DNA of 64,000 bases from Candidatus Poribacteria bacterium (GTDB lineage: Bacteria > Poribacteria > WGA-4E > WGA-3G): assembly GCA_963663765.2 (NCBI GenBank), contig CAXXUA010000005.1:480001-544000 (forward strand), in the 5' to 3' direction. Made by a program: the position numbers and the translations under genes. Positions 12,470 through 56,987 of the stretch are shown here, piece after piece. Each line of letters begins with the position of its first letter. The first letter of the stretch is position 1. Below the pieces are notes generated by a model. The model saw only the letters and a program-made list of their open reading frames with translations, was not told the origin of the DNA and searched no databases.

Positions 12470-12684
12470 CAGGACTTACGCACCCAACGGTAGGCGGGGA
12501 ATGCCAAAACGGCATTCATACCCGACGAATGCCATAGGCGCATTCGGCGTTGATTTGGGGGAATGCCTAAATGGCATTCATACCGTTGATTTCTTGATTT
12601 GGCGCCGGAAACCTAAAAAATGCTGAAAATTACATCGTTTTCGTCTTAATTCTTGATTGGATCATGAAAACTGCGTAAGTCCTG
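12470..12684. mobile_element. MITE family B (TIR CAGGACTTACGCA), 5-bp TSD ATTAT, containing nested micro-hairpin elements
   Basis: attat|caggacttacgca ... tgcgtaagtcctg|attat. Confidence 0.85.
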
Positions 12685-12878
12685 ATTATTCAACATGAAG
12701 GTTTATGGTAGGTTTTAGAATTATTAGTTACATGATACGACTGTTTTCAATAGAAGTGACCTCCCAGACGCGACCGAGATGCTTTTGCAATAGAAGAAAA
12801 TACTCCAATAAACAATAATGGGAGGTACCATCAAGAAACAATGTTATGTCTGAAATGGTATAATATTTTTGTGGACTT

Positions 12879-13313
12879 ATGGAGAAACAAACAATGTATT
12901 TATATCACGGAAGCAAACAGTTGTTTCCCAAATTGAAAAAACGCAAAGCTCAAGCACCACCAGGGAGACCTCCCGAAGAAGCCTTAGAGGCAATCTATTT
13001 AACACCTGATTTTTTCTTTGCATTGGCTTGCGCAGCAAGACCCCCCGGAGTTTCTAATATAGATCTGACAAAACGAATCATTTGCTTTGAAAACCCTGAT
13101 CAGTTTGAGCCAAACGAGACGATTTACATCTATTTTGTAGATTCAACAAAAATACCAGAGGATAAGAAAATTGAAATTGATCCATGGCAGGTTGCTGTAA
13201 CTGAGAATGAGATAACTCCAGATAAAGTTGAAACCTATAAGTCTGGTGACTTGCTGAAACACTATCGCGTTACCGATAAATGGATTGACTCAGATGAAGG
13301 CAATTCAGGTTAA
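12879..13313 (+). CDS. Hypothetical protein, possible ADP-ribosyltransferase-like fold
   Basis: LYHGS and IYLTPD motifs resemble ART strands 1 and 2. Confidence 0.5.
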   Translation: MEKQTMYLYHGSKQLFPKLKKRKAQAPPGRPPEEALEAIYLTPDFFFALACAARPPGVSNIDLTKRIICFENPDQFEPNETIYIYFVDSTKIPEDKKIEIDPWQVAVTENEITPDKVETYKSGDLLKHYRVTDKWIDSDEGNSG

Positions 13314-13348
13314 TAGAACACCTGCTACATAACAAAGGAGATTACATA

Positions 13349-14293
13349 ATGTTTTTTGCAACTAACAATGGTATCTATACAATTGAAGATAATGGGAATA
13401 AAGAACCTACACAAGTTTATGAAGGCACAGACCATCAGACAATGGTTTCATTGTCAAAGGGTCACACCGTAGCGGTAGCACTATCAGGTGGAACACTACT
13501 CATCTTGTCAGAGAAAGGTGAGAAATGCATACCAACAGGTATAGAGGATCCAATCGCTTCGTTGCTCGTTGTTCGTGAGGACCCGATAACACTACTTATC
13601 GGAACGGATGAGGGTGCTTATGTCTATCGGCTCGTTGATGAAGAAGGTCCTGCTGAACGGGTTAAGTCTTTTGATGAATTAGAATGTCGGAAAGATTGGT
13701 ATACGCCATGGGGCGGTCCACCAGCTGTCCGGACTCTTGCCAAAACCCAAGACGGATTTTGTTATGCAGATATCCACGTAGGAAGTATCATGCGTTCCAA
13801 CGATGAAGGTATTTCTTGGGAACCTGTCACACCGGACCTAAATAAAGATGTTCATCAGGTTGCTACGTGTCCTGCGGATGATCATCAAGTGTTTGCGAAC
13901 ACTGCTAACGGTGTCTATGTCAGTAAAGATCGAGGGCATTCCTGGGTGAATCGGCTTGAAGGGTTGCCGGTTCGCTACGGCACCTCTATTGCAGTAGATC
14001 CTGCCGACCCAAACTTGATGATCGCCACAGTCCAAAGAGGACCACGAGGCGGTGGTGCTTGGCTTTGTCGTTCAGACAATGGTGGTACGACGTGGACTCA
14101 ACTTAACGAAGATCTCAAAGAATCAGCAGATCGGATTCGCACAGGTAGTATTGCGTTTACATCTGATGGAACAGCTTGGGCTGTAATCGGAAAAACGCTT
14201 TATATCGGTAAGGATCGAGCCACAGATTGGAGTCCGTTCTGGACAGCACCCAATGTTGATAGCGAATACCCTATTCAAACCCTTGCTGGATAG
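13349..14293 (+). CDS. BNR/Asp-box beta-propeller protein
   Basis: Repeated S.D.G.SW/TW Asp-boxes. Confidence 0.8.
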   Translation: MFFATNNGIYTIEDNGNKEPTQVYEGTDHQTMVSLSKGHTVAVALSGGTLLILSEKGEKCIPTGIEDPIASLLVVREDPITLLIGTDEGAYVYRLVDEEGPAERVKSFDELECRKDWYTPWGGPPAVRTLAKTQDGFCYADIHVGSIMRSNDEGISWEPVTPDLNKDVHQVATCPADDHQVFANTANGVYVSKDRGHSWVNRLEGLPVRYGTSIAVDPADPNLMIATVQRGPRGGGAWLCRSDNGGTTWTQLNEDLKESADRIRTGSIAFTSDGTAWAVIGKTLYIGKDRATDWSPFWTAPNVDSEYPIQTLAG

Positions 14294-14435
14294 TAGTGCT
14301 TAGTCAAGTGTTTATTGACGGATCTAAAAAGTAGTCGGGAATCGGAGTTCCCTCCTACAATACACACAATACACAAGACTTCTGTAGGAGCGATCTCCGA
14401 ATCTCGACCTACAATAGTATGTTGACTCAACAGTA
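14294..14435. repeat. REP doublet within a probable small TA-ended MITE
   Basis: agtcgggaatcggagttccctcctac ... gtaggagcgatctccgaatctcgac, same REP family as 4390-4455; imperfect ends tagtgcttagtcaa / ttgactcaacagta. Confidence 0.6.
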
Positions 14436-14470
14436 GTTTGTTGCAAGAGTAATTAGAGGAGTCTGTAGTT

Positions 14471-14836
14471 ATGAATGTATTAGGTATTGACTTTACTTTC
14501 TTTGCTGTGAGTGATATGCAGAGATCACTCACCTTTTATCGTGATACACTTGGCGTTCCACTGGCAGGTTTAGCACATGAAGGTAAATGGGCAGAATTTC
14601 AAATAAATCCAGGAACTTTAGCGTTAGGAGAAGGCGATTTCTTCACGGAACCCGGTGGTGGAATGGTCGCATTTGCTGTTGGGGACGCCAAAGCTGCTGT
14701 GGAAGAATTAGAACAAGCGGGGATTAAGCTTCAAACCCCATTGGGTGAATCTGCTGTATGTTTTTGGGCGGTTGTTGAAGACCCCGATGGAAATCGTGTT
14801 ATCATTCATCAGCGAAAGGATAAGACAGTTGGGTAG
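14471..14836 (+). CDS. VOC/glyoxalase family protein
   Basis: V.D..RS..FYRD.LG and DPDGN motifs. Confidence 0.88.
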   Translation: MNVLGIDFTFFAVSDMQRSLTFYRDTLGVPLAGLAHEGKWAEFQINPGTLALGEGDFFTEPGGGMVAFAVGDAKAAVEELEQAGIKLQTPLGESAVCFWAVVEDPDGNRVIIHQRKDKTVG

Positions 14837-14855
14837 ATAACAATTTACGATCATA

Positions 14856-15182
14856 ACGCGTTGTGCTAAATAACTATATGTTAATCATTGTTTCACATAA
14901 GCATGACGTTTTGCAGGTGTCCTTCATAGTTTGAAACGATCTTCAGTCCCGACAAATGCCATACACGCATTTGGCGTTGATTTGGTAGGGACGATATGTT
15001 TATAGAAAACGTCATAGTACATCCTCTTTAGTCCCGACAAATGCCATACGGGGAATGCCAAAAGGCATTCATACCGTTGATTTGGCGCATTTGGCGTTGA
15101 TTTGGTAGGGACGATATGTGTGCATTATAAACCTAATATATGTAAAAACTTTGAATACAATGGGTTAACTGGCACAAGTCGT
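14856..15182 (+). mobile_element. MITE family C (TIR ACGAGTTGTGCTAAATAACT-like), 7-bp TSD GATCATA
   Basis: gatcata|acgcgttgtgctaaataact ... gttaactggcacaagtcgt|gatcata; colinear with the copy at 55665-55894. Confidence 0.9.
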
Positions 15183-15300
15183 GATCATAGATCATAGTTT
15201 TATCTAAACGAATGATAATATAAAGGTTACAATTCATAATAATTGTGGTATAATATAGCATGAGTTGGTATTGTAGAACTAATTTTGTGAGGTCGCGTAG

Positions 15301-15576
15301 ATGAACTACCGAGACATTATTACCATTGAACCTGGCAAACGTGGAGGGAAACCTTGTATTCGTGGTATGCGAATTACTGTTTACGATGTCTTAGACTATC
15401 TCGCATCAGGCATGACAGTAGTCGAAATTCTTGATGATTTTCCCTATTTAACCGAAACTGACATCCGGGCATGCCTTGCCTATGCAGCAGATCGCGAAAA
15501 AGCACAGATGGTTATTTACACAAATGAAACTTCTATTCGACCAGAATCTATCGCCTCAACTGGTGAAACGACTTGA
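15301..15576 (+). CDS. DUF433 family antitoxin (VapB45-like)
   Basis: PGKRGGKPCIRGMRITV..LT..DI.ACL.YA. Confidence 0.9.
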   Translation: MNYRDIITIEPGKRGGKPCIRGMRITVYDVLDYLASGMTVVEILDDFPYLTETDIRACLAYAADREKAQMVIYTNETSIRPESIASTGETT

Positions 15577-15855
15577 GGATTTGTTCCTAATTCTACCCAC
15601 GCACAGAATATTGGGTTAGATACCGCAGCGGATTCCGAATTGTGGAACTATGCAAGCGATAGCGACTATCTCATTGTGTCGAAGGATACAGATTTCGGTG
15701 ATAAAAGTGCAATTCATGGACATCCACCTAAAGTAATTTGGATTAAGCGAGGAAATTGTTCCACAAGAACAGTTGAAAAGATATTGACAGATCACTACTC
15801 GGATATACAATCCTTTGCAAGAAATCCAGATCAAGGATTACTGATCCTGTTATAA
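15524..15855 (+). pseudogene. DUF5615 PIN-like toxin (VapC45-like), frameshifted
   Basis: MKLLFDQNLS from ATG 15524; 1-nt loss near 15586 (ttc cta att instead of ttc cct aat); continues IVSKDTDF..HGHPPKVIWIKRGN. Confidence 0.82.
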
Positions 15856-15921
15856 TTTCACTTTACCTTAAACCCCGCACTAATGTAATACTGTTGAAAA
15901 TACAAGGAAATTTACGTACTT

Positions 15922-16419
15922 ATGAAAACATTTTCAAGACTCAATCTTATATTTCTTATTTTTATTTTAGTAATCGGTATATCCAGTTGTGAACGGATAC
16001 CAAAAGTAATAGATTCTCAAACAGAAACACCACTGGCGGATCGCGACCATGTTTGGCCAGTTGATCAAAACGGTATTGAGGTGCCTATCCCAGGAACATG
16101 GGTATTAGTATCACATACGCACGAAAATTCGACATCTACAATTGGTGAAAATTTCACCTTACCTGCAGATCCCCAACCTATTCTTCAAACATCGGATGGC
16201 ACATATACAGATGATGAAGGTATACTCTGGACGAAAATAAGGCTTATAACCGCTGAAGGCGATAGGTGGCAGTTCCTTGAACGTGTAGATACAAGTGTTT
16301 CACCTCATCAACTCTACGCTGTTGTTACAGTAGATGAAAATGGAATCCCAATTCTTGAATATGGTGAATATCCATTTGATTTACCGAGGTACAACGTGCA
16401 AATTTGGGAGAAACAGTGA
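15922..16419 (+). CDS. Hypothetical lipoprotein
   Basis: Signal peptide ending ISSC. Confidence 0.65.
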   Translation: MKTFSRLNLIFLIFILVIGISSCERIPKVIDSQTETPLADRDHVWPVDQNGIEVPIPGTWVLVSHTHENSTSTIGENFTLPADPQPILQTSDGTYTDDEGILWTKIRLITAEGDRWQFLERVDTSVSPHQLYAVVTVDENGIPILEYGEYPFDLPRYNVQIWEKQ

Positions 16420-16448
16420 GGAATCACATATAAATCAGGCGCATTCCC

Positions 16449-17684
16449 ATGCTATTCCGTTTTTCACTCTACGGCTTCCTAAAAAATCAACGCTACTATG
16501 ATCCGTTTATTGTATTAGCATTCCGTGAGAAAGGTCTATCCTTTTTACAAATCGGTCTCATTTTCGGATTTAGAGAGGTATGTACGAATATCTTTGAAAT
16601 TCCTTCTGGTGCTGTAGCAGATCTTTATGGTCGACGTCGTGCCATGATATTTTCGTTTTGTGCTTATATTGCCTCTTTCGCTACATTTGCATTAAGCAAT
16701 TCACTCCTGATGCTTTTTGGTGCTATGTTCTTCTTTGGCTTAGGCGATGCGTTTCGAACCGGTACACACAAGGCGATGATTTTCGACTGGTTACGTTTGC
16801 AGGGTAGATCAGATGAGAAGACAAAAATATACGGCTTTACACGTTCATGGTCACAGATGGGGTCTGCGGTTTCTGTTCTCATTGCAGGCACATTAGTTTT
16901 TCTCCTTGGCAATTACACAGCTATTTTCTGGTATTCAATTATTCCATACCTAATAAACATCATTAATTTCTTTGGTTATCCGAAGGAACTTGATGGCGAT
17001 AAACAGAGTGAGTTTTCACTCAAAGCGGTTGCAAGTTTGTTCTGGAGTGCGATCAAACAATCAGTGCAATTCCCTCCTTTACGCCGTTTAGTTTTTGAGG
17101 GTATGGGTTTTGAAGGTATGTATAAAGCAAGTAAAGATTATCTACAACCGGTACTTGAAAAGGCTGCCACCGTATTACCAATTCTGTTAACAGTTGATAG
17201 TTCAAAACGCACTGCGGTTCTCGTTACGGTTATCTATTTTCCACTCTATTTTTTATCATCATTTGCCTCTCGGAATTCCCATAGAGTTTCGGATTGGCGA
17301 GGTGGAGATGAAGGTGCTGCGCAAGTGATGTGGTGGACAAATTTATTATTTTTTGCCCTGTTGATTCCAGCTTTTTATTACAACTTACACCCTGCGATAA
17401 TCGCTCTATTCGTCATTTTAGCAATACTTCAGAATTTTTGGAGACCCGGTTTGATTAGTCGTTTCAATGTACAGTCTTCACCTGAGATGAGCGCGACAAT
17501 TTTATCCATAGAAGGACAATCGAAATCTTTAGCGACAGTAATCCTTGCTCCATTGCTCGGATGGTTAGTAGACAATGCTGGGAACTTTTACCCAGTAGGT
17601 ATTGTTGGTACTTGCATTGCAGTGGTAATTCTTATAGCATATCATAGTCAATTAGAAGTGAAACCCGAATATAGTGCGGAGTAG
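16449..17684 (+). CDS. MFS transporter
   Basis: EIPSGAVADLYGRR motif A, multiple TM helices. Confidence 0.88.
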   Translation: MLFRFSLYGFLKNQRYYDPFIVLAFREKGLSFLQIGLIFGFREVCTNIFEIPSGAVADLYGRRRAMIFSFCAYIASFATFALSNSLLMLFGAMFFFGLGDAFRTGTHKAMIFDWLRLQGRSDEKTKIYGFTRSWSQMGSAVSVLIAGTLVFLLGNYTAIFWYSIIPYLINIINFFGYPKELDGDKQSEFSLKAVASLFWSAIKQSVQFPPLRRLVFEGMGFEGMYKASKDYLQPVLEKAATVLPILLTVDSSKRTAVLVTVIYFPLYFLSSFASRNSHRVSDWRGGDEGAAQVMWWTNLLFFALLIPAFYYNLHPAIIALFVILAILQNFWRPGLISRFNVQSSPEMSATILSIEGQSKSLATVILAPLLGWLVDNAGNFYPVGIVGTCIAVVILIAYHSQLEVKPEYSAE

Positions 17685-18327
17685 TCCTCTTATGGAACAG
17701 GTGTCTCTGTTTCCTCTTTTAGATAAACAAATTGCACAACCCCAACCGTTACCGACGAATCAGCATGCTGCTAAGGTTGTCACCGGATTAAAGTACATTG
17801 CTGATTATCTCACTGAAGTGCAACATGATTGGTTGATAAATCATATTGACAAACAACAATGGAATACTTTTTATCAACGACGTGTGCAAAATTATGGTCA
17901 CAGTTACAACTTCAATGGTCGGCAAGAAGAACAGGAAAAACCGATTGCTGCGTTTCCTGAGTGGGTGAACAGACTCTGTCAGAAATTGCAAAAAGATGGA
18001 CACATGCCTAAAGTCGCAAATCAGGTGCTTGTAAGTGAATATGAACCCGGACAAGGTATTGGAGATCATACGGATAAAGAGGCATGCTTCATGGATACCA
18101 TTGGTATTTTGAGTTTAAATTCATGTTGTGTGATGGATTTGACAAGTGTAAGTGATAAAACAAAAAAGTTTCCTATCTGGTTAGCACCAAGAAGTTTGAC
18201 TGTCTTAACTGGAGATGCAAAAAACAGATGGATGCACGGGATACCTTCCAGAAAGTCGGATATGTGGGAGGGACGAAAATATCCGCGACAGCGACGCATA
18301 TCCCTCAGTTTTAGGTGTTTGATGTAA
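17674..18327 (+). CDS. AlkB-like 2OG-Fe(II) dioxygenase
   Basis: YEPGQGIGDHTD, W.HGI, RISLSFR. Confidence 0.88.
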   Translation: MRSSPLMEQVSLFPLLDKQIAQPQPLPTNQHAAKVVTGLKYIADYLTEVQHDWLINHIDKQQWNTFYQRRVQNYGHSYNFNGRQEEQEKPIAAFPEWVNRLCQKLQKDGHMPKVANQVLVSEYEPGQGIGDHTDKEACFMDTIGILSLNSCCVMDLTSVSDKTKKFPIWLAPRSLTVLTGDAKNRWMHGIPSRKSDMWEGRKYPRQRRISLSFRCLM

Positions 18328-18350
18328 ATAGATGATTAGGAAAATGAAGC

Positions 18351-18686: not shown

Positions 18687-18834
18687 TTGTAGGATTATCT
18701 TGACAATGCATTAGCCGGAATTAGGTACAGTCGAAAGACCGTACCTAAATTACCTCAGAAAGTTAAATAGGTTAACAGGAGTTTTCATTGCTTAAGTTTA
18801 CCGCGACACCCCAGCAGATATGACACGCAAAACC

Positions 18835-19380: not shown

Positions 19381-19522
19381 TACTTCCGCCTCAAAAGATA
19401 ATACCCAGAAGGAAACATCGGAATGCCGATTATTCATTTTTCTAAATGAAAACGACGGGGCAATAATTGCAATCGCCACGCTTGTTCTTGCAGGTATAAC
19501 CCTTTGGTACGTCATTGAGACA

Positions 19523-19978: not shown

Positions 19979-20452
19979 AGTTGATAATCATATGGGTCGG
20001 TGTGGCGGTGTTTGTGTGCTGTGCTGGAGGCTTGCGCTATGTGCCACAGGCTTCGCTGCGTTCGCTCCGCTACGCTTCGGGCGGTGATATTCGCTACGCT
20101 CCACCGTCCACCCTTCGCTGCTCCACTTCACTTTACTACGCCAGAGGCACAGGCGGGGAATGCCTAAATGGCATTCATACCGTTGATTTGGCGGTGCCTG
20201 TTACGGGCTTGTGTGCGAGAATACGCACCGCGCCCTTGCACCAGCAGGTACACAGTCCAGTGATGCATTTGCTTTGCCGCGCCCTGACTGTAGCCCTGCT
20301 GCCATTCTCATTGAACAGAGATTTTCCCGTATAAAAAACTTTTCTTGCTCCCCGTCTTTCGCCGCAATTTCTCAATTTTACTTACAATCCAAAATCGCAC
20401 GGAATATAAGCAGCACTGCAGTTTATCCGAATTCTATAAATATATATGTCCA

Positions 20453-22793: not shown

Positions 22794-22967
22794 CTAATTT
22801 CTCCTTTTTCTCACTTTCTTATATGCACGTTAAAAAAACTATATTCTTATAAGCATAGACTGACATCAGACCATGAATGTATAACTGTATGAATTATGGA
22901 CAATAATACACAAATACCATTTTTCTGTCAACAACAAATTAACCTATGGGTGTGTAAAATTTTTGCT

Positions 22968-23613
22968 CCATAGGTGTCAATTTAAGAACAGGAATTACGC
23001 ACCCAACGGTAGGCGTGCTTTGTAAGCGCACCCCCCAACTGCAGGCGTGCTTTGTAAGCGCGCTCCCTAACTGCAGGCGTGCTTTGTAAGCGCACCCCAA
23101 TGGTAGGCGTGCTTTGTAAGCGCACCCCCTAACAGCACTCCCCTGCAGGCGTGCTTTGTAAGCGCACCCCCCAACTGCAGACGTGCTTTGTAAGCGCACC
23201 CCCCAACTGCAGGCGTGCTTTGTAAGCGCGCACCCCAACTGCAGGCGTGCTTTGTAAGCGCACCCCAACTGCAGGCGTGCTTTGTAAGCGCACCCCGATG
23301 GTAGGCGTGCTTTGTAAGCGCACCCCGATGGTAGGCGTGCTTTGTAAGCGCACCCCAACTGCAGGCGTGCTTTGTAAGCGCACCCAGATGGTAGGCGTGC
23401 TTTGTAAGCGCGCTGGCACATCACGTCTCAACAGCGCGCTTACAAAGCACGCCTACCGTGTGAGAAAATTTATTACCGAATTTAATAAATTAATCATCAT
23501 AAAGTTTGATGCTCAAATTGTCCAAATAATTATATGTTTTAGTATAATCGGGGTTGAAAACCCCTCCCACAAGAGAAAATACCAACACTTTTTTCTTAAA
23601 TTGACGCTTATGG
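22968..23613. mobile_element. MITE family A nested in the left TIR of family D, 17-bp TSD
   Basis: tgtgtaaaatttttgct|ccataggtgtcaatttaag ... cttaaattgacgcttatgg|tgtgtaaaatttttgct. Confidence 0.85.
23009..23456 (+). repeat. Tandem array of 13 ~30-bp REP-derived units plus one inverted copy
   Basis: G(T/C)AGGCGTGCTTTGTAAGCGC with C-rich ~10-bp linkers; ends with agcgcgcttacaaagcacgcctac. Confidence 0.92.
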
Positions 23614-24104: not shown

Positions 24105-24294
24105 CAGGGTGATTCAGTTTTACCCATTTTACCTGTTTCTTGAGAAAATCGCGACTGGCAAATCAAGAAATCAACGGTATGAATGCGCGTATAGCATTCC
24201 CCGGGTACGAATGCCTTTTGGCATTCCACGGGTCGCCCCTACCGCGGAGTTTCTTTTTCAAAAAATCCAAAAATTAGGAAACTGAATAACCCTG
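24105..24294. mobile_element. Small MITE (TIR CAGGGT.ATTCAGTTT) containing a REP with nested micro-elements
   Basis: cagggtgattcagttt ... aaactgaataaccctg. Confidence 0.75.
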
Positions 24295-24303: not shown

Positions 24304-24433
24304 CAGAGGCATTCAATTGTCCGAATTGACTATTGTGGGAGGGGTTTGTAACCCCGATTTCAGAGACAAGCATAACAAATCGGGGTTACAAATCCCTCCT
24401 ACAAAGATGTATTGTGACAATTGAATGTCTCTG
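24304..24433. mobile_element. Small MITE (TIR CAGAG.CATTCAATTGTC) with REP doublet
   Basis: cagaggcattcaattgtc ... gacaattgaatgtctctg; internal REP same family as 4517-4586. Confidence 0.78.
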
Positions 24434-24743: not shown

Positions 24744-26819
24744 ATGAGACAATTTAGAACAGAAGCAATTAGGAATATTGGCATAATTGCTCATTCAGGG
24801 GCTGGTAAAACATCCCTGATTGAAGCGATGCTATATAATGGTGGTGCGATTGAGCGAATGGGTGCTGTGGATGATGGAAACACGGTAGCAGACTATGCCT
24901 CAGATGAGATAGACCGTAAGACATCACTTAGTTGTTCCGTGTGTATAGCGGAATGGGGTGATCACAAGTTGAATTTAATTGATACGCCGGGTGCGGAGGA
25001 TTTTTATGGTGATCTTCACAGTGTACTTCGGGTTGTGGATGCGGTTATTGTAGTCGTTGATGCAACGACTGGGGTGGAAGGCGGTACCGAAAAGGTATGG
25101 GAAGTGGCGAACAAGTACGAATTACCGCGGTTGATCTTTATCAACAAAATGGATAAAGAGAATGCGAGTTTTGAAAATGCACTTGCGAGTATTTCAGATA
25201 TATTGGAGATCCGTGCTGTCCCGGTGCAAATCCCAATTGGAAAAGAGGATGAATTCACAGGTATTGTAGATGTGATTCAGGATGGTGCGTTTCTTGAACC
25301 GAATGGAAACACACCAGTTGCGAAAACAGATGTTCCTGAGGAATTGACAGGAGCAGCAGAGGAATCTCGTGAAGCCCTTGTTGAAGTGGCTGCCGAGAGT
25401 GATGATGAGTTGATAGAAAAATTTTTTGAAGGTGAACTTTCTGAACAGGAGATTCAGAATGGTCTTCAAACCGGTATTCTTGAAACTCAGTTTGTGCCTG
25501 TGTTGTGTGGGGCTGCGTTGAAGAACATCGGCGTTCAGCAGTTGATGGATATGATTGTTAGTTGGTGTCCGTCTCCAGTTCAGGCGGGTGCAGTGCAAGA
25601 TGCTGAAGATGAATCCAAGACTCGCGAACCTTCACCTGACGAACCGTTATCTGCTGTTGTCTTCAAGACAATTGCGGACCCGTTTTCTGGTCAACTTAGT
25701 CTTTTCCGTGTGTATTCTGGGACATTGACAGGAGACATTCAAGCAAGGAATACGACTCGAGGACAAGTGGAACGTATTGGTAAACCCACATTCATGAATG
25801 GCAAAATTGCGATTAACACCGACAAGATTTCTGCTGGCGATATTGGTGCCCTTACCAAACTTGCTAACACACGTACTGGTGATACTTTGTCAGACACGGA
25901 TACTCCAATTAAACTTCCCGGTATTGAGTTTCCAAACACAGTAATCTCATTTGCTATTTCTCCTGCGCGCGAGGGTGATGATGAGAAATTGATTACTGGT
26001 TTGACACGTATAAGTGAAGAAGATCCATCGTTTCAGATTGACCGGAATGATGTAACGAAGCAGCTGCTTGTCTCCGGTTTAGGTGAGCTTCATATCACTG
26101 TCAATCGTGCAAGGATTGCTGAAAAATTTGGTGTTGAAACGAAAGTTGTCACTCCAAAAGTGCCTTATCGTGAGACAGTTCGTAGACCCGTAAAAGGAGT
26201 GCAAGAGAGGCACAAGAAGCAGTCTGGTGGTAAGGGTCAATTCGGTGATGTTACTATCAATCTTTCACCTTTGGAACGTGGAACTGGTTTTGAGTTTATT
26301 AACAATATCAAGGGTGGTGTAATTCCTCAAAATTATATCCCCGCCGTAGAGAAGGGCATCCGTCAAAGGATGGATCGGGGTGTACTTGTTGGTTATCCGT
26401 TAGTTGATATCCAAATTGACCTTTATGATGGCAAGTATCATCAGGTGGATTCATCGGATATGGCGTTCCAAATTGCGGGTTCTATGGCATTTTCGACAGC
26501 GGTGCAGCAAGCAGATCCTTGTCTTCTTGAACCGATCATGAAGGTATCAATATCCGTTCCTGATCAGTATATGGGTAATATCATAGGCGATCTGAATGGT
26601 CGTCGTGGTCAAGTGCTGGGTGTTGATCAGATGGGTAAACGTCAGGTTATACAAGCGATGGTGCCGCAATCAGAGATGCTTCGTTATTCTATTGATTTGA
26701 AGTCTATGACGAGTGCACGTGGGAATTTCACGATGGAATTTGAGCGCTATGACATCGTTCCTGATGACGTTGCTCAGAAGGTAATTGCTGCATCTAAAAC
26801 GGAAGAGGAAGAGGCATAA
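24744..26819 (+). CDS. fusA: Elongation factor G paralog (EF-G2-like)
   Basis: RNIGIIAHSGAGKTS, DTPG, NKMD, GLGELH, PKVPYRET, HKKQSGG.GQFG, DSS; divergent G1 and standalone location. Confidence 0.88.
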   Translation: MRQFRTEAIRNIGIIAHSGAGKTSLIEAMLYNGGAIERMGAVDDGNTVADYASDEIDRKTSLSCSVCIAEWGDHKLNLIDTPGAEDFYGDLHSVLRVVDAVIVVVDATTGVEGGTEKVWEVANKYELPRLIFINKMDKENASFENALASISDILEIRAVPVQIPIGKEDEFTGIVDVIQDGAFLEPNGNTPVAKTDVPEELTGAAEESREALVEVAAESDDELIEKFFEGELSEQEIQNGLQTGILETQFVPVLCGAALKNIGVQQLMDMIVSWCPSPVQAGAVQDAEDESKTREPSPDEPLSAVVFKTIADPFSGQLSLFRVYSGTLTGDIQARNTTRGQVERIGKPTFMNGKIAINTDKISAGDIGALTKLANTRTGDTLSDTDTPIKLPGIEFPNTVISFAISPAREGDDEKLITGLTRISEEDPSFQIDRNDVTKQLLVSGLGELHITVNRARIAEKFGVETKVVTPKVPYRETVRRPVKGVQERHKKQSGGKGQFGDVTINLSPLERGTGFEFINNIKGGVIPQNYIPAVEKGIRQRMDRGVLVGYPLVDIQIDLYDGKYHQVDSSDMAFQIAGSMAFSTAVQQADPCLLEPIMKVSISVPDQYMGNIIGDLNGRRGQVLGVDQMGKRQVIQAMVPQSEMLRYSIDLKSMTSARGNFTMEFERYDIVPDDVAQKVIAASKTEEEEA

Positions 26820-29268: not shown

Positions 29269-30741
29269 ACGACCTGTTTTAGTTAACTTAATGTTTGTAT
29301 TATTATCACACCTATTAAGCTTGTGTTATTAACATATCGTCCCTACCAAATCAACGCCAAATGCGCGTTTGGCATTTGGCGGGACTAAAGATAGGGTATT
29401 CAACGTTTTTCTATAAAAATATCGTCCCTACGGGACTAAATGGTTCACTCTTTAAGTCTTTGCGATATTTCTTCAATTGAAGTTCCATAGGGTTCTAACT
29501 TGTATCTCGGTTGCTCTTGTGGGTCTTTCTTCCAATGGTAAGGGTGTTTATGGACATTCCACCAACACACCGCGCACTCAATGGATTCGATGAGTTCATC
29601 TTGTGTCTCAAACTTTCTCCCTTTCAATGCCAGTGATCTGAGTTGTTTCCACCAAGGTTCTATCAGGTTTAACCAACACGCATATTTCGGAATAAACTGA
29701 ACTCCTACCTCCGGCCACACCAATAATGCGGTTTTTACATCACGACTATGGTGAGTAGAAAGATTGTCTTCAATCAAAAGCCGCTTGTCTGATGGAAACT
29801 TCTCTATGATTTTCTCAAGCAATGCTATATGACTTGCACTATCCCTCCTCTGAAATCACTATTTCCTCTTGACCCGTCGCACGTTCAAACACATCATGAA
29901 CCCATACTTTACCACGACGACCATAGTCCAGTTCAAAGGTCACACGACCCACACCGCGTTGCCAAACTTCACCGGATATGTTTTAGCTTCTATCGGTCCC
30001 ATCTCATCAATACAGACAACACAAGTATTAGGCGGCGGGGAACGATACGCCGCTATAACAGTCCCCTTTTTTCTACAACTCTTTGTCTTGCTTCTCCGCT
30101 TCACGAAACCAACTTTGTTGACGCTTCAAACGCAATCCCTCTTCATTTAGCCACTCCCAGATTGTTGAATCAGAAAGATGAATACCTGTTCTTTCTTTAA
30201 ATGCCGTTTGCAACCGTATCAATGTCCACAACTCAAATGGATAACCGAGACTACGCGGATTTTGCATTGCTAAATCTATGAGTTTCCCTCGCACCTCTGT
30301 TGAATGCACACGCGGTTTCCCACTTTTCGGCTTATCTGTGAGCCCTGGGATACCCGCTTCATTGAACCTTTTGACCCAACAGGGACCAGAGTTATCCGAC
30401 TTGAAACCCACATTTATTCCTGCTTGAGTAGCTGTCAGTGTCTCGTCATCAAGCATGCTAACAATCAATTTCGCACGCTGCACCATCCGATAGGAATGTG
30501 TGCGTGAACTCGCAAGTCTCCTCAATTCAACGTTTTCTTCCTCATTAACCTCACGAATGTGATGTATTCGTTTTCCCATCTCAATTCTCCTCTCCATTTT
30601 TTGAATTTAATAGATAGAAGAATTATACCAAAATATCTTGGCGAGTCAACCACTAAATAAGAAATCAACTCTTGAAAAAACTAAGAAAGCGTCTGCAATT
30701 GTGAAGCACTACATTACAAATAGTTATTTAGCACAACTCGT
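29269..30741 (-). mobile_element. MITE family C, 7-bp TSD ATATTTA, hosting an IS630
   Basis: atattta|acgacctgttttagttaact ... agttatttagcacaactcgt|atattta. Confidence 0.82.
29439..30653 (-). mobile_element. IS630-family insertion sequence with TA duplication; transposase decayed
   Basis: HTH ORF 30073..30597 and DDE_3 portion (DEMGP, DNLSTH, P.YA.WLN.IE.WW) ending 29445; AAAAAAG slippery site plus extra frameshifts; ends aatggttcactc / gagtcaaccac flanked by TA. Confidence 0.88.
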
Positions 30742-30749
30742 ATATTTAT

Positions 30750-50602: not shown

Positions 50603-50632
50603 TTCTTACGCACACGAACTAACGGAGTACGC

Positions 50633-51424: not shown

Positions 51425-51498
51425 GGTTGACACAATTCCACTTATTATGTTATAAAATAAAACATAAACCACACCGACAGCACCACAAGGAGACCAAC

Positions 51499-53319
51499 AT
51501 GAATAAATTACATACTTTCTGGAAGACACTTACACCCCTGATGATATTGACCTTCATTCTTGTTCTACCCCTCTCTGCTGAGGAACAAACCGAAGATGAA
51601 GCAGCACCACTCACTAAAAACTATGTTGAATTCACACTCGGTGGCACATACTCCGACATCAAAGAGATGAGTTTATTCGGCACAGCATCAACAAAAACAC
51701 TGCGCGGACTCTTCAAAAAATTGGACGAACTGAAAAATGACGATGAAGTCTCAGGCATTATCTTCAAAATCGGAAATATCGGTATAGGATGGGCAAACCT
51801 TCAAGAAATTAGAGAAAAACTAAACGAATTTCAAGATACTGATAAAGAGATGATCGCATATCTGGAAACCGGTGGCAACGCACAATATCTCCTCGCCACT
51901 GCTATGGACAAAATCGTACTTATGCCATCAGGGTTCCTAAACCTCATCGGCTTGCGCTCAGAAATAATGTTCTATAAAGGTCTATTTGAAAAACTGGACA
52001 TTGAAGCCGATATGCTCGCAATGGGAAAATTCAAATCAGGTGTTGAACCCTACATGCGCGACAGCATGTCAGACGCATTCCGAGAATCTATGACAGGCCT
52101 ACTGGACGACCTATATACCCAAATGTTGGAAAAAATCGCAGACGGCAGAGACGGAATTAACAAAGAACACGCAGCAAAGTTAATAGACAACGGTCCCTAC
52201 ACAGCAAAAGAAGCAAAAGAAGCAAAACTCGTTGATGAACTACAATACTACGATGAACTCATTGATACAATAAATGAAAAACCAGGCGTAAACTTAGTTG
52301 AAAATGGCACAAAAAAGAAAAGAAAAGTACCCAACTTAAATAGTGTCATTGGACTGATGCAGTTGATGAACATGCTCAACCCACAACCAAAAGCAAATGC
52401 AAAAACCGCAGAAAACCAACTCGCACTCATCTACGCAAGCGGTCCCATCGTACCCAATGTCAACTCCATCTTGCCAACAACGTCTCTGATAACACCAAAA
52501 ACCTTAAAAAAAGCGTTTGAAAAAGCACGGTCCGATGATTCTATCAAGGCAGTCGTGTTCCGTATAGATAGTCCTGGTGGTTCCGCCTTCGCTTCTGACC
52601 TGATTTGGCGGGAGGTTATGCTCACACAACGTGAAAAACCGGTCATTGTTTCTATGTCAAATTACGCTGCATCCGGTGGCTATTATATCGCTATGGCAGC
52701 AGGAACAATTGTCGCACAACCCGGCACACTCACAGGATCAATCGGCGTCTACGGCGGCAAACTCAATATGAAAGGTCTATACAACAAAGTCGGATTGACA
52801 AAAGAGATCATCGTACACGGGCAAAACGCATCGCTTTACTCCGATTACGGCAGCTTCACGCCAACAGAACGCGAACGCGTCCAAAAAATGATGAAAACTA
52901 TCTACGAAGAATTTGTCAACAAGGCAGCTGATGGTAGGAAAAAGACCTTCGCAGACATTGATGCAGTCGCACAAGGTAGAGTCTGGACAGGAAAACAAGC
53001 TAAAGAACTCGGACTCGTTGATGAACTCGGTGGACTCAATACCGCACTAACAATCGCAAAAAAACAAGCAGGTTTGAAGGAAAATGACAAATACGACATC
53101 CTCATCCTACCGGAACAGAAATCCTTGTTTGAACAAATCTTTGAGGATATACTTGATGACGAAGCAGGAATCTCAACACCATTGCCAATACAACTGGCAC
53201 AGCAGCATCCCGCACTCGCACTATTAAAAACGCATTGGCATCAGATAATAACGTGGTTGACACTCTTTGAAAAAGAACGAGTGATCACTGCACTACCTTT
53301 TCATATTGAAATTCGGTGA
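51499..53319 (+). CDS. sppA: Signal peptide peptidase SppA (67K type)
   Basis: RIDSPGGS, AASGGYY, TGSIGV, GRVWTG..A...GLVD; start after AGGAG. Confidence 0.92.
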   Translation: MNKLHTFWKTLTPLMILTFILVLPLSAEEQTEDEAAPLTKNYVEFTLGGTYSDIKEMSLFGTASTKTLRGLFKKLDELKNDDEVSGIIFKIGNIGIGWANLQEIREKLNEFQDTDKEMIAYLETGGNAQYLLATAMDKIVLMPSGFLNLIGLRSEIMFYKGLFEKLDIEADMLAMGKFKSGVEPYMRDSMSDAFRESMTGLLDDLYTQMLEKIADGRDGINKEHAAKLIDNGPYTAKEAKEAKLVDELQYYDELIDTINEKPGVNLVENGTKKKRKVPNLNSVIGLMQLMNMLNPQPKANAKTAENQLALIYASGPIVPNVNSILPTTSLITPKTLKKAFEKARSDDSIKAVVFRIDSPGGSAFASDLIWREVMLTQREKPVIVSMSNYAASGGYYIAMAAGTIVAQPGTLTGSIGVYGGKLNMKGLYNKVGLTKEIIVHGQNASLYSDYGSFTPTERERVQKMMKTIYEEFVNKAADGRKKTFADIDAVAQGRVWTGKQAKELGLVDELGGLNTALTIAKKQAGLKENDKYDILILPEQKSLFEQIFEDILDDEAGISTPLPIQLAQQHPALALLKTHWHQIITWLTLFEKERVITALPFHIEIR

Positions 53320-53323
53320 TTTT

Positions 53324-54127
53324 ATGAATTCCAATGATTTACACATTGACGTAACTGACGAACAGGTGACTTTCTTCCAAGAAAATGGATACTTGAGCAT
53401 CCCGCGCATCACGACGGATAATGAAGTTGAATGGCTAAAAGGTATCTACGACAAACTCTTCAATGATCGCACGGGTGAAGAGCAAGGACGCTATTTTGAC
53501 CTTGCAGGTCCCCGCGCACATGCCGGTCAAGAAACACTGCCACAAGTATTAGGTCCAGAAGCACAATTCCCAGAACTCCGAGAGACAACCTATTTCAAAA
53601 ACGCACAACGACTTGCCGCAAAACTACTCGGAGAAGAACAGGAAAAGGTTGGTGGCGGCGGACACATGATACTCAAACCCGCACACTACGGGAACGAAAC
53701 GCCTTGGCATCAAGACGAAGCATATTGGAATCCCTCAGTCAGACCACACAGTTTAAGCGTGTGGCTGCCACTTGACAAAGCAACGCTTGAAAGTGGATGT
53801 CTACAGTTCATCCCGAAATCCCACAAAGGCGCCGTCCGTTGGCATCGCCACATAAACAACGACCCGCTTGTACACGGCTTAATTACCGATGATGTTGATC
53901 CGTCAGAAGCAGTCGCATGTCCAATACCCGCAGGCGGTGCAACGTTCCATCACTGCCGCACTTTACACTATTCCGAACCCAACAGCACCCCACAAGAACG
54001 GCGAGCATATATCCTTGTCTTCAGCGGTCCACACAAAAAATTGCACAAACCTGACCACCGTCCCTGGATAACAGAGGAACAGGAAGCACTCGCAAAACTA
54101 AAATCCTTAGCAGCAGATAGGGAATAG
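53324..54127 (+). CDS. Phytanoyl-CoA dioxygenase (PhyH) family
   Basis: TPWHQD, GCLQFIP.SH, LHYS.PN. Confidence 0.9.
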   Translation: MNSNDLHIDVTDEQVTFFQENGYLSIPRITTDNEVEWLKGIYDKLFNDRTGEEQGRYFDLAGPRAHAGQETLPQVLGPEAQFPELRETTYFKNAQRLAAKLLGEEQEKVGGGGHMILKPAHYGNETPWHQDEAYWNPSVRPHSLSVWLPLDKATLESGCLQFIPKSHKGAVRWHRHINNDPLVHGLITDDVDPSEAVACPIPAGGATFHHCRTLHYSEPNSTPQERRAYILVFSGPHKKLHKPDHRPWITEEQEALAKLKSLAADRE

Positions 54128-54424
54128 TAATTAGAAGTAGTCGGCACACGCCGTGTGCCGTACACAAAAAAAGATGTCCAAGATTACAGACACAGCACAG
54201 AGAAACGAAAGGACAACCCATCCGCAGGTATCGCAGGATAAGGAAAATTAATGAAACTCGGTTTGCAATTGAAGGTGGACGATAAAAACACTGTCCCTAA
54301 CAATTGATTAAAACTATATATTAGGTTATAATATATTTAACTGAAGTTTATTTCAATTTATGTATGTATAGTCTATTTCTCTTGACCGCATTTGAAAAAT
54401 TGCTTACATATTGAGACTACTATC

Positions 54425-55585
54425 ATGGCTGAGTATGTTGATGGGATTAATCCTGAAATCCTCAAATGGGCGCGCGAACGTTCCGGTTATTCCTTGGATG
54501 CGGCTGCCAAAACTTTAAGTAAAGATATTTCATTCATCAATGAATGTGAGTCCGGCAATCTTGCACTGACTTATGCTCAACTTGAAACTTTAGCTGATAA
54601 GTACAAGCGTCCTGTAGCTATTTTCTTTTTTCCTGAACCGCCGGAAGAAGATAATATTGCTGAGAATCTTGCACTGCGAAGTTCTGACGTTGATCAATTA
54701 GAACCGAGAATCCATATTCTATTGCGACAAGCTTATGCACGACAACTTTCCTTGATGGAACTCAGCATGGGGAAAAATCCATCTGAAAATCAAATATTTA
54801 GAGACTTTCACGCCCAACTTAATGATTCACCTTTGGAATTAGCAAAACAGACTCGAGTGTATCTGAACATCAGTGTTGACCAACAAACAAATTGGAAAAA
54901 TTCCACAATAGCATTGGAAACTTGGCGGGAATGTATTCAAGAAAAAGGTATTTTCATTTTTAAAGAAGCATTTAAAAATAATTCTGTCGATGGATTTTGC
55001 CTTGTACATGATGTGTTTCCTGTAATCTATCTCAATAATAGTCGACCAGTAGTCCGACAAATTTTTACTTTGTTCCATGAATTAGCACACCTGCTACTTG
55101 GTAAAAACGGGATTACCCGTGACATTAACCCTACAGGTGAAAAAATTGAAACATTCTGTAACCAATTTGCTGCTGAATTTCTTGTGCCATCTGATGACTT
55201 AGAATCTCACCTTAAGTTTCCTGATTACGATGATAATACTGTAGAAAAATTGGCAAGTATTTATAAAGTTAGCCGTCCAGTCATTTTGTTAAAGTTAGTC
55301 AATAAGGGGATTCTTACGAATGAAATTTATCTGCAGAAAATAAAGGGGTGGACAGCATTATATGAATCACATAGAGAACAAAAAACCAGAGATGAATCCC
55401 CAGGCGGCGGAAACTATTACAATACTCAAACAGAATATTTAGGTCCGAGATATATGGAACTTGCTTTTAGCAAGTTTTACCAGGGGCAATGTACGATTGA
55501 ACAACTCTCAGAGCATCTAAACGTCAAGGTTAAGAATTTATCTGGGCTTGAAGACTGCCTGTTCAGAAAGGCAGTTCGTAAATGA
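54425..55585 (+). CDS. XRE HTH + ImmA/IrrE metallopeptidase
   Basis: ILKWARERSG HTH; FTLFHELAHL (HExxH); E.FCN.FAAEFL.P. Confidence 0.9.
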   Translation: MAEYVDGINPEILKWARERSGYSLDAAAKTLSKDISFINECESGNLALTYAQLETLADKYKRPVAIFFFPEPPEEDNIAENLALRSSDVDQLEPRIHILLRQAYARQLSLMELSMGKNPSENQIFRDFHAQLNDSPLELAKQTRVYLNISVDQQTNWKNSTIALETWRECIQEKGIFIFKEAFKNNSVDGFCLVHDVFPVIYLNNSRPVVRQIFTLFHELAHLLLGKNGITRDINPTGEKIETFCNQFAAEFLVPSDDLESHLKFPDYDDNTVEKLASIYKVSRPVILLKLVNKGILTNEIYLQKIKGWTALYESHREQKTRDESPGGGNYYNTQTEYLGPRYMELAFSKFYQGQCTIEQLSEHLNVKVKNLSGLEDCLFRKAVRK

Positions 55586-56289
55586 TCTACGTATTTGACA
55601 CCAATAGTTTTAGTGTCCTTGGTAATTATTACCCTAACCAATTCCAAACTATTTGGCAATATTTACGAGTTGTGCTAAATAACTCTATGTTAATCATTGT
55701 TTCATTTCACATAAGGATGACGTTTTGCAGGTGACCTTCATAGCTTGAAACGATCTTCAGTCCAGTAGGGACGATATGTTTATAGAAAAATGTCATAATA
55801 CATCCTCTTTAGTCCCGTAGGGACGATATGTGTGCATTATAAACCTAATATATGTAATAACTTTGAAAACAATGGGTTAACTGGCACAAGTCGTAATATT
55901 TCGATCAAGCAATGAAAGATGGAAAGATTATCTCTGTAAAAGAAGTTGAAAGAGAACTACAACGGTACACGCGGTATCCTCATTTATCTGATTGGATAAA
56001 ACGGAATAAAAACATTTTTGTGAAACCGGGTACTGCAGAAACGCAATTTGTTAGGCAAATTTTCTTAGTGCCACATTTCCAAAACTTAGTAAATGAGAAA
56101 AATCGTTTAACTGGATACCCGTGTGCCGATCCATTCATCATTGCCTTAGCCAAAACAATAAACGGTTGTGTTGTCACTGAAGAAAAAGAGAAACCTAACG
56201 CTCCTAAAATACCAAACGTTTGTGACCATTTTAAAGTTCCATTTACTAACTTGCGGGGATTCATGGAAAGAGAAAAATGGAAATTCTAA
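55582..56289 (+). pseudogene. DUF4411 PIN-like nuclease interrupted by a MITE
   Basis: MIYVFDTN... from the ATGA overlap; removing 55665-55901 restores WQYFDQAMKDG...ADPFIIALA...VVTEE..KIPNVC. Confidence 0.88.
55665..55894 (+). mobile_element. MITE family C, 230 bp, 7-bp TSD AATATTT
   Basis: aatattt|acgagttgtgctaaataact ... gttaactggcacaagtcgt|aatattt. Confidence 0.93.
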
Positions 56290-56443
56290 ATGTAATATAA
56301 TAACTAACAATGCAATACAATAAATCCATTCAAACTTTGATTGTAAAACGAATTAGCATAAGAATAATGCATATACCATTTTATAAAGTAATATCTCATT
56401 TAGGAAGACTTCTTCCTGTGCTTGCGCGGACCTCCCATGTCCT

Positions 56444-56707
56444 CCGCTTGTACACGGCTTAATTACCGATGATGTTGATCCGTCAGAAGCAGTCGCATGT
56501 CCAATACCCGCAAGCGGAGCAACGTTCCATCACTGCCGCACTTTACACTATTCCGCACCCAACAGCACCCCACAAGAACGGCGAGCATATATCCTTGTCT
56601 TCAGCGGTCCACACCAAAAATTGGACAAACCTGACCACCGTCCCTGGATAACAGAGGAACAGGAAGCACTCGCAAAACTAAAATCCTTAGCAGCAGGTAA
56701 AAATTAA
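56444..56707 (+). pseudogene. Displaced duplicate of the phyH 3' end (repeat of 53864-54116)
   Basis: About 253 bp with about 5 mismatches by eye; ends AAGKN-stop. Confidence 0.9.
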
Positions 56708-56710
56708 CAC

Positions 56711-56751
56711 AAAATCTCGCTGAATGCTATACACGCATTCAGCGAGATTTT
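56711..56751. terminator. Palindromic hairpin, probable bidirectional terminator
   Basis: aaaatctcgctgaatgc-tatacac-gcattcagcgagatttt between convergent units. Confidence 0.6.
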
Positions 56752-56873
56752 GAATTTGTAATGTTTCAAATCGCTAAATCGCATTGATCTGCCCAGAAAC
56801 GGAACACAACCTAACAGGTCGTGCTACAACACCCTCGTTAGGTTCGGTTTCCTAACCAATACAGAATACCACA

Positions 56874-56987
56874 CGGGGAATGCTTTATAGCATTCATACC
56901 CGGGGAATGCTTTATAGCATTCATACCCGGGGAATGCTTTATAGCATTCATACCGTTGATTTCTTGATTTCTTGATTACTTGATTTG
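56874..56987 (+). repeat. Nested micro-hairpin elements: three hairpins followed by four TTGATT(T/A) tails
   Basis: (ggggaatgctttatagcattcatacc)x3 then ttgatttc ttgatttc ttgattac ttgatttg. Confidence 0.85.

Follow-up and report, generated by a model that had tools for sequence, protein, structure and literature searches.

A self-nesting hairpin-and-tail micro-element in the palindromic repeats of a poribacterial genome

Introduction

Can a non-coding hairpin of about 35 nucleotides move as a unit, and how would it join its target? The question is raised by a 64,000-nucleotide stretch of a Candidatus Poribacteria genome (GenBank assembly GCA_963663765.2, contig CAXXUA010000005.1, here C5, positions 480001-544000; hereafter the window), in which hairpins followed by the tail TTGATTT lie within repetitive extragenic palindromes (REPs), within a MITE (miniature inverted-repeat transposable element) and within one another. 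A preliminary description of this stretch had interpreted them as a minimal non-autonomous element that is hosted by palindromes, exists in filled and empty states and inserts repeatedly into itself. The analysis reported here covered the whole genome (G000; 6.35 Mb, 15 contigs, 41% G+C), its relatives in the phylum and metagenome stretches. The micro-element is real, abundant, lineage-restricted and self-nesting. Its sites are found in two states, also beyond the loci first named and at one orthologous locus; its arrays follow a grammar, it lies in a fixed orientation relative to its hosts, and one copy is polymorphic between strains.

Mobile DNA of less than 50 nt has apparently been described only for the small dispersed repeats (SDRs) of cyanobacteria, with the mechanism open since 2008. 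The Poribacteria unit adds a second, unrelated lineage and makes the question testable through its clean insertion grammar, its strain-level filled/empty pair and a junction rule that excludes the usual mechanisms. A literature search (full text for the right-arm motif; titles and abstracts for Poribacteria repeats, MITEs, REPs and insertion sequences (IS); supplements outside its scope) returned no description of the element.

Unit structure and sites in the window

The unit reads CG-(GGGAATGC-loop-GCATTCATACC)-G-TTGATTT-G, or carries the variant arms ACAAATGC...GCATTTGGC, and forms seven arrays in the window, which were read and parsed at all seven places named in the preliminary description. 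Arrays were parsed with three symbols: A for GGGAATGC-N5-8-GCATTCATACC, B (B/C type) for AC(A/G)AATGC-N-GCATT(T/C)GGC, and t for the tail TTGATT(T/A). A single unit in its host is written l-CG-H-G-T-GG-r, where l and r are the host flanks, H the hairpin and T the tail TTGATTT. The pattern GAATGC-N6,7-GCATTC-N5,6-GTTGATTT was found five times in the window, compared with 0.00 expected from 100 dinucleotide shuffles. Folding of the window sites as single-stranded DNA (ssDNA) gave hairpins stacked within the host palindrome (z -1.2 to -7.2). The occupied sites, followed by the unoccupied ones, are listed below, with ^ marking the insertion point or junction.

12495..12602, plus strand: composite array in a REP1-type palindrome, parsed at 12497-12600 as A,B,t,A,t,t; fold z = -3.4.
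14950..14985, plus strand: 34-nt B-type unit at site 1 (AGTCC-C^G-TAGGGACG) of MITE-C copy 14856, parsed at 14952-14983 as B,t.
15035..15104, plus strand: B-type unit at site 2 of MITE-C copy 14856, whose loop CATAC^GC holds a 35-nt A unit.
20154..20191, plus strand: lone A unit in a palindrome loop (GGCAC-AGGC^GCG-GTGCC), parsed at 20156-20189 as A,t; fold z = -3.2/-3.9.
24158..24230, minus strand: A,A,t,t (parsed at 24160-24228) in the loop of a REP of the GTAGGGGCGACC...GGTCGC type, ~480 nt upstream of fusA.
29346..29381, minus strand: B-type unit (parsed at 29348-29379 as B,t) at site 2 of the MITE-C-type end of a broken IS630-like element.
56874..56988, plus strand: A,A,A,t,t,t,t (parsed at 56876-56986) in the palindrome CAGAATAC...GTATTCTG, loop CACAC^GC; fold z = -7.2.
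55759..55825, plus strand: sites 1 (55759-55773) and 2 (55811-55825) of MITE-C copy 55665, both unoccupied.
23009..23456, no strand assigned: at least 13 unoccupied REP1 palindromes (…AGGC^GTGCTTTGTAAGCGCGC); REP1 is the commonest A-unit host genome-wide.

At 12495, the junction between an A hairpin and its tail holds a C/B-type unit (ACGAATGC...GCATTCGGC plus tail) and a second A unit, followed by two stacked tails. The A unit nested in the B loop at site 2 of MITE-C copy 14856 occupies 15051-15083 plus junction bases and was parsed as A,t. The flanks at 20154 form a single-member cluster (C5, plus strand, 500155), and the neighbours of this site are two open reading frames (ORFs) without Pfam matches. 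Site 1 of the IS630-like element end at 29346 is empty (29423-29437), and the three A hairpins at 56874 are identical, all with the loop TTTATA, and are followed by four tails. Over the REP1 palindromes, a 161-amino-acid (aa) ORF called at 22939-23424 on the minus strand has no Pfam match and is probably mere read-through of the repeats.

Filled and empty sites

The flanks of each occupied site were sought in the genome without the unit. The usual outcome was l-CG-r for the empty site and l-CG-H-G-T-GG-r for the filled one, and among the arrays examined CG precedes in 433/471 and GG follows in 350/471. The main host sites were counted as follows.

MITE site 2 (…tagtccCGtaggg…; ...agtccCGtagggacg): 467 empty, 36 filled.
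MITE site 1: 100 empty, 11 filled.
REP1 site 1, four flank variants: 135 (...ggtaggCGtgctttg), 197, 376 and 90 empty; 23, 13, 8 and 4 filled.
B-unit loop (…gccataCGcgcattt…): 57 empty, 47 filled.

At REP1 site 2, the rare GTAGGCG variant is filled 19 times and empty once, versus one filled and 137 empty for the common GTAAGCG, which indicates that the sequence left of the site matters. CG>TG/CA variants are found among the empty sites, a pattern compatible with methylation of the target cytosine.

The MITE-C copies display the two states side by side. Copy 55665 reads AGTCC-A-GTAGGGACG and AGTCC-C-GTAGGGACG at its two sites. In the alignment, the inserts of copy 14856 span 34 columns at site 1 and 69 at site 2 (34 + 35, the A unit within the B loop), and the six further gap columns between the two copies are small indels, which bears out the comparison drawn in the preliminary description. 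A third copy (29290-29460, minus strand) is empty at site 1 and carries B only at site 2, so that the window alone holds three site-2 states, namely empty, B and B+A. Genome-wide, 271 MITE copies have both sites readable; both are empty in 191, and every mixed state is present. The states at site 1/site 2 include B/empty (13), B/B (11), B+A/empty (11), empty/B (10), empty/B+A (4), B+A/B+A (4) and B+A/B (3), plus others. Within the MITE, A units occur solely inside B loops and never directly in a MITE site.

The broken IS630-like element spans 29290-30745, with Pfam DDE_3 at 29445-29822 and HTH_32/HTH_33 at 30073-30597, all on the minus strand. Its ends are those of MITE C (left-end motif reverse-complemented at ~30711-30740, hairpin end at 29290-29460), so MITE C, with at least 271 copies, probably derives from that insertion sequence. 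The two nearest species have unrelated bases in place of this 1.48-kb stretch at their syntenic loci, 145 in G016 and 411 in G100.

A filled/empty pair between strains

An exact 27-base pattern of the unit was found in at least 120 metagenome stretches, and 80 of these were analysed as loci. They were picked for holding a unit, so their junctions alone count as independent evidence. Locus L178 (1194 nt) aligns with G000 C2:135642-136675 at 95.9% identity over 1069 columns, 35 of which form a single gap, and is ~99% identical apart from it. There, G000 reads …CCATGATTCATACC-G-TTGATTTGG… and L178 reads …CCATGATTCATACC-CG-(A hairpin, loop CAAAAG)-G-TTGATTT-C-TTGATTTGG…, so that the gap is an A unit nested in a composite D-type unit (described below) and the sole mismatch beside it is G in G000 versus C in L178. 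This is strain-level presence or absence of one nested unit, and it displays the junction rule without any assumption about the ancestor.

A second strain-level polymorphism lies ~100 nt from the nested A unit. G000 carries, at C2:135520-135650, a 128-nt insertion with a palindrome of its own (GGTTCTT…AAGAACC) in the first loop of the D-type unit, which is absent from L178. Two differences within ~100 nt mark these hairpins as hot spots.

L178 alone was close enough for such a comparison, as loci L127, L156 and L174 (91-96% identity to G000) diverge at the repeats. In G016 and G100 (fusA 88-89% identity), the genes are syntenic, the intergenic repeats have wholly turned over and no site is comparable. 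In six public runs, which comprise short-read contigs broken at repeats, a 35-nt 'skip' at 14949-14985 was traced to paralogous empty MITE copies.

Grammar of stacked arrays

Across the genome, 615 A hairpins (at most one mismatch per arm) fall into 427 clusters, and the token parser returned 657 arrays. From these counts, 120 'B alone' arrays were dropped as opposite-strand echoes of the near-palindromic B pattern or as insert-split B units. The array patterns were counted as follows, with rarer forms reaching tandem arrays (AtAt...) of ~10 units.

At 234; Att 73; Bt 73; AAtt 65; A alone 18; Attt 14.
AAttt 9; Atttt 9; AAAtt 4; AAt 3; AAAttt 3.

Hairpin and tail numbers are correlated genome-wide, as the preliminary description had anticipated for repeated self-insertion. 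One tail follows in 234/349 one-hairpin A arrays; where there are exactly two A hairpins and nothing else, two tails follow in 65/80 and one tail in 3/80, and fewer tails than hairpins are rare. The grammar is (CG-hairpin)n G (tail-C)n-1 tail. The linker between stacked hairpins is CG in 108/117 cases (CATACC-CG-GGGAATG), with the G form of a plain insertion seen once. The linker between tails is C in 275/296 (T-C-T 238, TTGATTA-C 37), with zero to one G-linked, and the first tail is preceded by G (CATACC-G-TTGATT) 512 times. The 80 metagenome loci yielded At 80 times, AAtt nine, Att eight and AAt none, with CG between hairpins in 10/10 and C between tails in 20/20.

The order of arrival can be read from hairpin variants. 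The hairpins of a stacked pair are unlike in 65/77 arrays, with loop variants mixing freely between inner and outer positions. In arrays within B loops, the first hairpin is the variant of that site's single occupants (loop CTTAATG) and the second is another, which places the newcomer 3' of the resident hairpin. An inner variant hairpin (GAATACC stem) is accompanied by an adjacent variant tail (TTGATTA) in 5/8 arrays, compared with 1/54 where standard hairpins occupy both positions, and this indicates that hairpin and tail arrive as one piece between the resident hairpin and its tail. Stacked arrays are the product of nesting rather than of slippage, at the unit's own hairpin/tail junction.

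Some Att arrays are nests of another kind. Among 21 arrays with the left flank CCATGATTCATACC, 12 are Att, and these are nests in a composite 'D-type' hairpin that the parser misses; the remaining Att arrays fit recombinational loss of one of two stacked 27-nt hairpins. In the D-type unit, an A-hairpin left arm is followed by a further hairpin (AAGCATGC-GCGTATG-GCATGCTCC or GCGAATGC…GCATTCGCC) and then by ATGATTCATACC plus a tail. It has dozens of copies genome-wide (e.g. C13, plus strand, 88930; C4, plus strand, 926248) and also hosts nested A units.

Long perfect palindromes GGTAGGCGGGGAATGCC-loop-GGCATTCCCCGCCTACC (e.g. C6, minus strand, 204524; C4, plus strand, 1121439), whose left half joins a REP1 flank to an A-hairpin left arm, may be the product of strand switching at a hairpin. 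Arrays also cluster strongly by region and share an orientation there, as in C6:300-450 kb (3 plus versus 42 minus).

Target sites and the junction rule

By their flanks, the 516 tail-bearing arrays group into 89 clusters, of which 56 are singletons. With one representative per cluster (83 A-type), position -5 relative to the site is A in 75%, positions -4 and -3 are C or G (S), position -2 is C in 88% and position -1 is G in 84%. Nearly all hosts are palindromic, with the site in or beside the loop; they comprise REP1, the GCGACC and GATC REPs, the GTCCC-GTA-GGGAC hairpins of the MITE, CATACGC loops and the singleton-flank palindrome at 20154. Each host holds the unit in a fixed orientation (152 versus at most 3, 102 versus at most 3, 59 versus 0; nests 135 versus at most 2). 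Self-nesting is explained by the resemblance of CATACC^G, the junction within the unit itself, to the loop target CCATAC^G. The preliminary claim that no target-site duplication accompanies insertion stands, there being nothing beyond an ambiguous single G.

It had also been claimed that the base after the tail is G where the empty site has C, and C where it has G. This rule, by which a target base N becomes CG-H-G-T plus the complement of N, holds in two large classes of sites and in the orthologous pair, and is unconfirmed in four minor host families considered below. At ordinary sites, N is the C of CG, and the result is indistinguishable from G-H-G-T-G inserted at C^G. In nests, the G that separates hairpin from tail serves as N, which yields CATACC-C-G-H-G-T-C-TTGATTT. 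Nests can alternatively be described as the addition of CG-H on the 5' side and of T-C on the 3' side of a central G. Plain insertion at CpG predicts CATACC-G-H and T-GG-T, which were seen once and at most once, respectively.

A junction in which G gives way to C...C cannot be produced by simple cut-and-paste, target duplication or slippage. Several schemes were considered and set aside, as each needs an extra assumption to turn G into C...C: target duplication of 1 or 2 nt, conservative site-specific recombination with an overlap of 1-2 nt, an integron-like G^TT exchange, hairpin opening with P-nucleotides, and target-primed synthesis.

Distribution

The exact 27-base pattern was searched in 176 genomes of the phylum, with the reversed pattern as control, which matched in none of the genomes surveyed. 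In its own genus, the pattern is present in 38/39 other genomes, and copies range from 0 to 343 across the genus, with the most in G000 (343), followed by G016 (177) and G017 (176), and 0 in G003. The sister genus g13 has it in 22/65 genomes (1-27 matches) and genus g6 in 1/20 (one match); the 51 genomes of the other 28 genera of the phylum have none. Among the genomes listed, the dominant loop variant differs between species. Searches of viral contigs and of plasmids gave no match (0 for the former). Rfam likewise returned no family match, just two sub-threshold microRNA (miRNA)-like matches on other palindromes.

Units lie within crude ORFs in 24/506 cases. For the 482 outside them, orientation to the neighbouring ORFs is same/same in 139, opposite/opposite in 164, divergent in 120 and convergent in 59. 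No direction is preferred, and the units are not terminators.

Interpretation and alternative explanations

We consider it likely that the arrays are made of mobile units of 33-35 nt, an ultra-small, non-coding and non-autonomous family whose members nest at their own junction. Each unit would consist of a 6-7 bp hairpin followed by G-TTGATTT. New copies would join in one fixed orientation at the C/G position after A-S-S, in or beside the loop of a palindrome, with REPs, the subterminal hairpins of the IS630-derived MITE and the CATACGC loops of related units as targets. At the target, base N would give way to CG-hairpin-G-tail-complement(N). The unit junction CATACC^G-TTGATTT would mimic the preferred site, whereby units would nest and build up (hairpin)n(tail)n arrays, and later recombination among stacked hairpins would delete hairpins and leave extra tails. 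As the mover we infer a trans-acting, structure- and sequence-specific activity, which is probably neither a Y1 HUH transposase nor a reverse transcriptase.

A bolder proposal, which we advance only tentatively, is an undescribed insertion chemistry that would use neither of these enzymes, act on the unpaired C or G after A-S-S in a DNA hairpin, join CG-hairpin-G-TTGATTT to it in a single orientation and leave the target base's complement behind; since each unit restores a target for the next, growth would be recursive. If true, the unit would be the smallest known self-targeting mobile DNA, and the junction rule would serve as a fingerprint for the enzyme.

Several results weigh against mobile units as the explanation. 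No mobilising gene was found. A search of G000 for a longer element of the kind that the preliminary description proposed to look for, with unit ends around a gene (hairpin left, tails right), gave none, and returned only composite hairpins of the D type and hairpins split by insertions, in one case by a 545-aa transposase ORF. In the four minor host families (GCGACC-TCC-C, GTAGG-AGCG, GAGACC-CCG/TG and AATCC-TGA), the ancestor predicted by the junction rule is 1-2 nt off the common empty form and is absent from the empty copies. The L178/G000 pair is the single orthologous one among the 80 loci and is compatible with gain or loss. Unit orientation correlates with GC skew (odds ratio 0.31, +/-100 kb), and a similar bias of unoccupied REPs (0.42 and 0.32) makes this uninformative on the unit itself. 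Finally, most copies reside in ~12 host-repeat families, so that already occupied hosts may have supplied much of the copy number by amplification or by gene conversion with one another. Many singleton flanks are chimeric, with the left flank from one host family and the right from another, a mark of recombination between copies.

The last of these points lead to an explanation that dispenses with dedicated transposition, in which a few ancient complex events were followed by host amplification, gene conversion and unequal recombination. The concentration in ~12 families and the chimeric flanks suit it, as do the 73 Att arrays and the tandem AtAt... arrays, which signal frequent recombination, and copying from an existing nested donor would account for the invariant C...C junction. 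We nevertheless regard it as unlikely, as it must accommodate at least 12 unrelated host contexts, including singleton-flank sites such as 20154, the occupancy preference for the rare GTAGGCG (19 filled to 1 empty) over GTAAGCG (1 to 137), a single replacement rule obeyed by unrelated targets, both where N = C and where N = G, the free mixing of loop variants between inner and outer positions, and the spread from 0 to 343 copies within one genus.

A Y1 HUH enzyme that moves units on ssDNA, either a REP-associated tyrosine transposase (RAYT) that also cuts the host REPs or the resident IS605-like TnpA, was the mover suggested in the preliminary description, and we now consider it quite improbable. 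The genome does contain candidates. The window has no Y1 transposase match, consistent with the earlier remark that no mobilising gene lies there, and the nearest (C5:550867-551220) is 6.9 kb past its end. That match belongs to one of four nearly identical IS605-like copies (tnpA then tnpB; C5:550867, C5:688634, C3:287718 and C5:353059), one of them truncated after tnpA, which share a common left end TTAACACTATTCCGTC... unrelated to the unit. There are also two RAYTs. RAYT-1 (C4:621598-622074; NCBIfam NF047646, 122.5 bits; 159-252 aa ORF) sits amid long GTAGGAG…-type REP arrays (C4:620900-622700), which include a GATC REP that also hosts A units. RAYT-2 (C10:24480-25277) carries a frameshift near 25150-25190 and is truncated by the end of its contig. 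Immediately upstream of it are at least eight REP1 copies, of which one is filled with an A unit; A and B units are present there only as a guest of that copy, and REP1 is probably the cognate REP of RAYT-2, to judge from adjacency only.

In favour of such an enzyme are these genes, the position of RAYT-2 beside the commonest A-unit host, the lower strand of the unit (GGTATG plus hairpin), which resembles a GTAG-tagged REP, the host flank CAACGGTAGG, which is able to pair with the unit's CATACCGTTG, the location of sites within hairpins and the absence of target duplication. Against it, a six-frame search with PF01797 (Y1_Tnp) found no match in G024 (one contig), G001 and G010, which have 87, 60 and 61 exact copies. 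RAYT-1 has homologues in 28/39 genomes of the genus, and the first 64 residues of RAYT-2 are matched in 18/39, neither with any relation to copy number; G020 has an 88% RAYT-1 homologue yet two unit copies. The IS605 ends are unrelated to the unit, RAYT-1 is flanked by a different REP, and peel-and-paste insertion would not replace the target base as observed. The proposed link to the ISDra2 target finds no support either, as TTGATTT belongs to the unit rather than to its target, and the sites are preceded by A-S-S-C.

Two other enzyme classes were surveyed. A reverse transcriptase (PF00078) is absent from G024 (87 copies), G001 (60) and G017 (176), and present in G003 (0 copies) and G010; it does not co-occur with the unit. 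The Y2 (IS91-type) profile PF04986 had 0 matches in five genomes, and the control genomes were likewise without a match. Copy numbers that span 0 to 343 in 40 sequenced species of a single genus lend themselves to a gene-association search for the mobiliser.

Replication slippage or tandem duplication of hairpins and 8-nt tails, or a selected functional motif such as a terminator or protein-binding site, is very improbable and already largely refuted: the tails do form an 8-nt tandem repeat, three identical hairpins stand at 56874 and a hairpin plus a T-rich run looks superficially terminator-like, but stacked hairpins are mostly unlike, tail and hairpin numbers are coupled, direction relative to ORFs is indifferent and Rfam holds no matching family.

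Comparison with known systems

The closest analogues of the mobile units proposed here are SDR4-6 of Nostoc, which are reportedly likewise very small, non-coding, lineage-restricted, dispersed in hundreds of copies and without a known mobiliser. They reportedly measure 21-27 nt, versus the 34- and 35-nt inserts found here, and are said to lie also within hairpin-forming flanks and inside one another. SDR4-6 are reported from Nostocaceae alone, and SDR5, in Nostoc punctiforme and relatives, is reported to insert precisely between bases 3 and 4 of the palindrome HIP1 (Elhai et al. 2008, Genome Res 18:1484). Both kinds of repeat enter a short, conserved palindromic sequence at an exact position, with A-S-S-C^G here instead of HIP1, which occurs 29 times in G000, and with two to three genera of Poribacteria as hosts rather than Nostocaceae. 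The hairpin-plus-tail architecture, strict stacked grammar and complemented junction base are features of the unit and not of SDRs, which were compared by description only. The unit therefore behaves in an SDR-like manner but falls outside the SDR group, from which it differs in phylum, size and target. The Delihas 2011 review does not mention SDRs.

The IS200/IS605 family uses a single-strand mechanism, and ISDra2 targets TTGAT. Hairpin-bearing ends, the absence of target duplication and a possible preference for ssDNA are shared with the unit. It differs, however, in having one hairpin rather than two, in replacing the target base and in ends unlike those of the resident IS605-like copies; TTGATTT lies inside its 3' part, and insertion takes place 5' of TTGATTT rather than 3' of a TTGAT target. 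The IS1397 class consists of full insertion sequences with transposase genes and target duplications, located in REP hairpins; insertion sequences of this kind are reportedly also the subject of Tobes and Pareja 2006. The unit resembles them in using the loop or stem of extragenic palindromes as its site, and is itself 35 nt and non-coding.

As short extragenic palindromes present in hundreds of copies and mosaic clusters, the units also recall REPs and their paired form, the REPINs (REP doublets forming hairpins), with their RAYTs, as described by Bertels and Rainey 2011 (PMC3116915) and Di Nocera et al. 2013 (PMC3733652). G000 has GTAG-tagged REPs together with RAYTs; the unit has no GTAG, and its lower strand may be likened to a tagged REP. 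In contrast to REPs, the units are guests inside REPs, not the REPs that adjoin a RAYT gene, and they are present in genomes without any Y1 gene match (G024, G001 and G010). In contrast to REPINs, they form no inverted doublets but are stacked or in tandem one way, with inverted arrangements numbering 0-3 per host type. Classical MITEs, such as the IS630-derived MITE-C, are similarly non-autonomous, abundant, intergenic and found in filled and empty states, whereas the unit lacks the terminal inverted repeats of an IS and a target duplication, is 3-10 times smaller and nests in itself. The unit is neither a REP or REPIN, nor an IS200/IS605 derivative, nor a classical MITE.

The units remodel REPs, MITE ends and intergenic hairpins, and mark recombination points through their chimeric flanks; they thus visibly drive change in the genome of an uncultivated sponge symbiont.

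Other features of the window

A near-perfect palindrome of ~130 nt is located at 24304-24433 (GTAGGAGGGATTTGTAACCCCGATTT … AAATCGGGGTTACAAACCCCTCCCAC). Its miRNA-like Rfam score is sub-threshold (34 bits versus a gathering score of 245), and its arrangement is that of a REPIN-like doublet.

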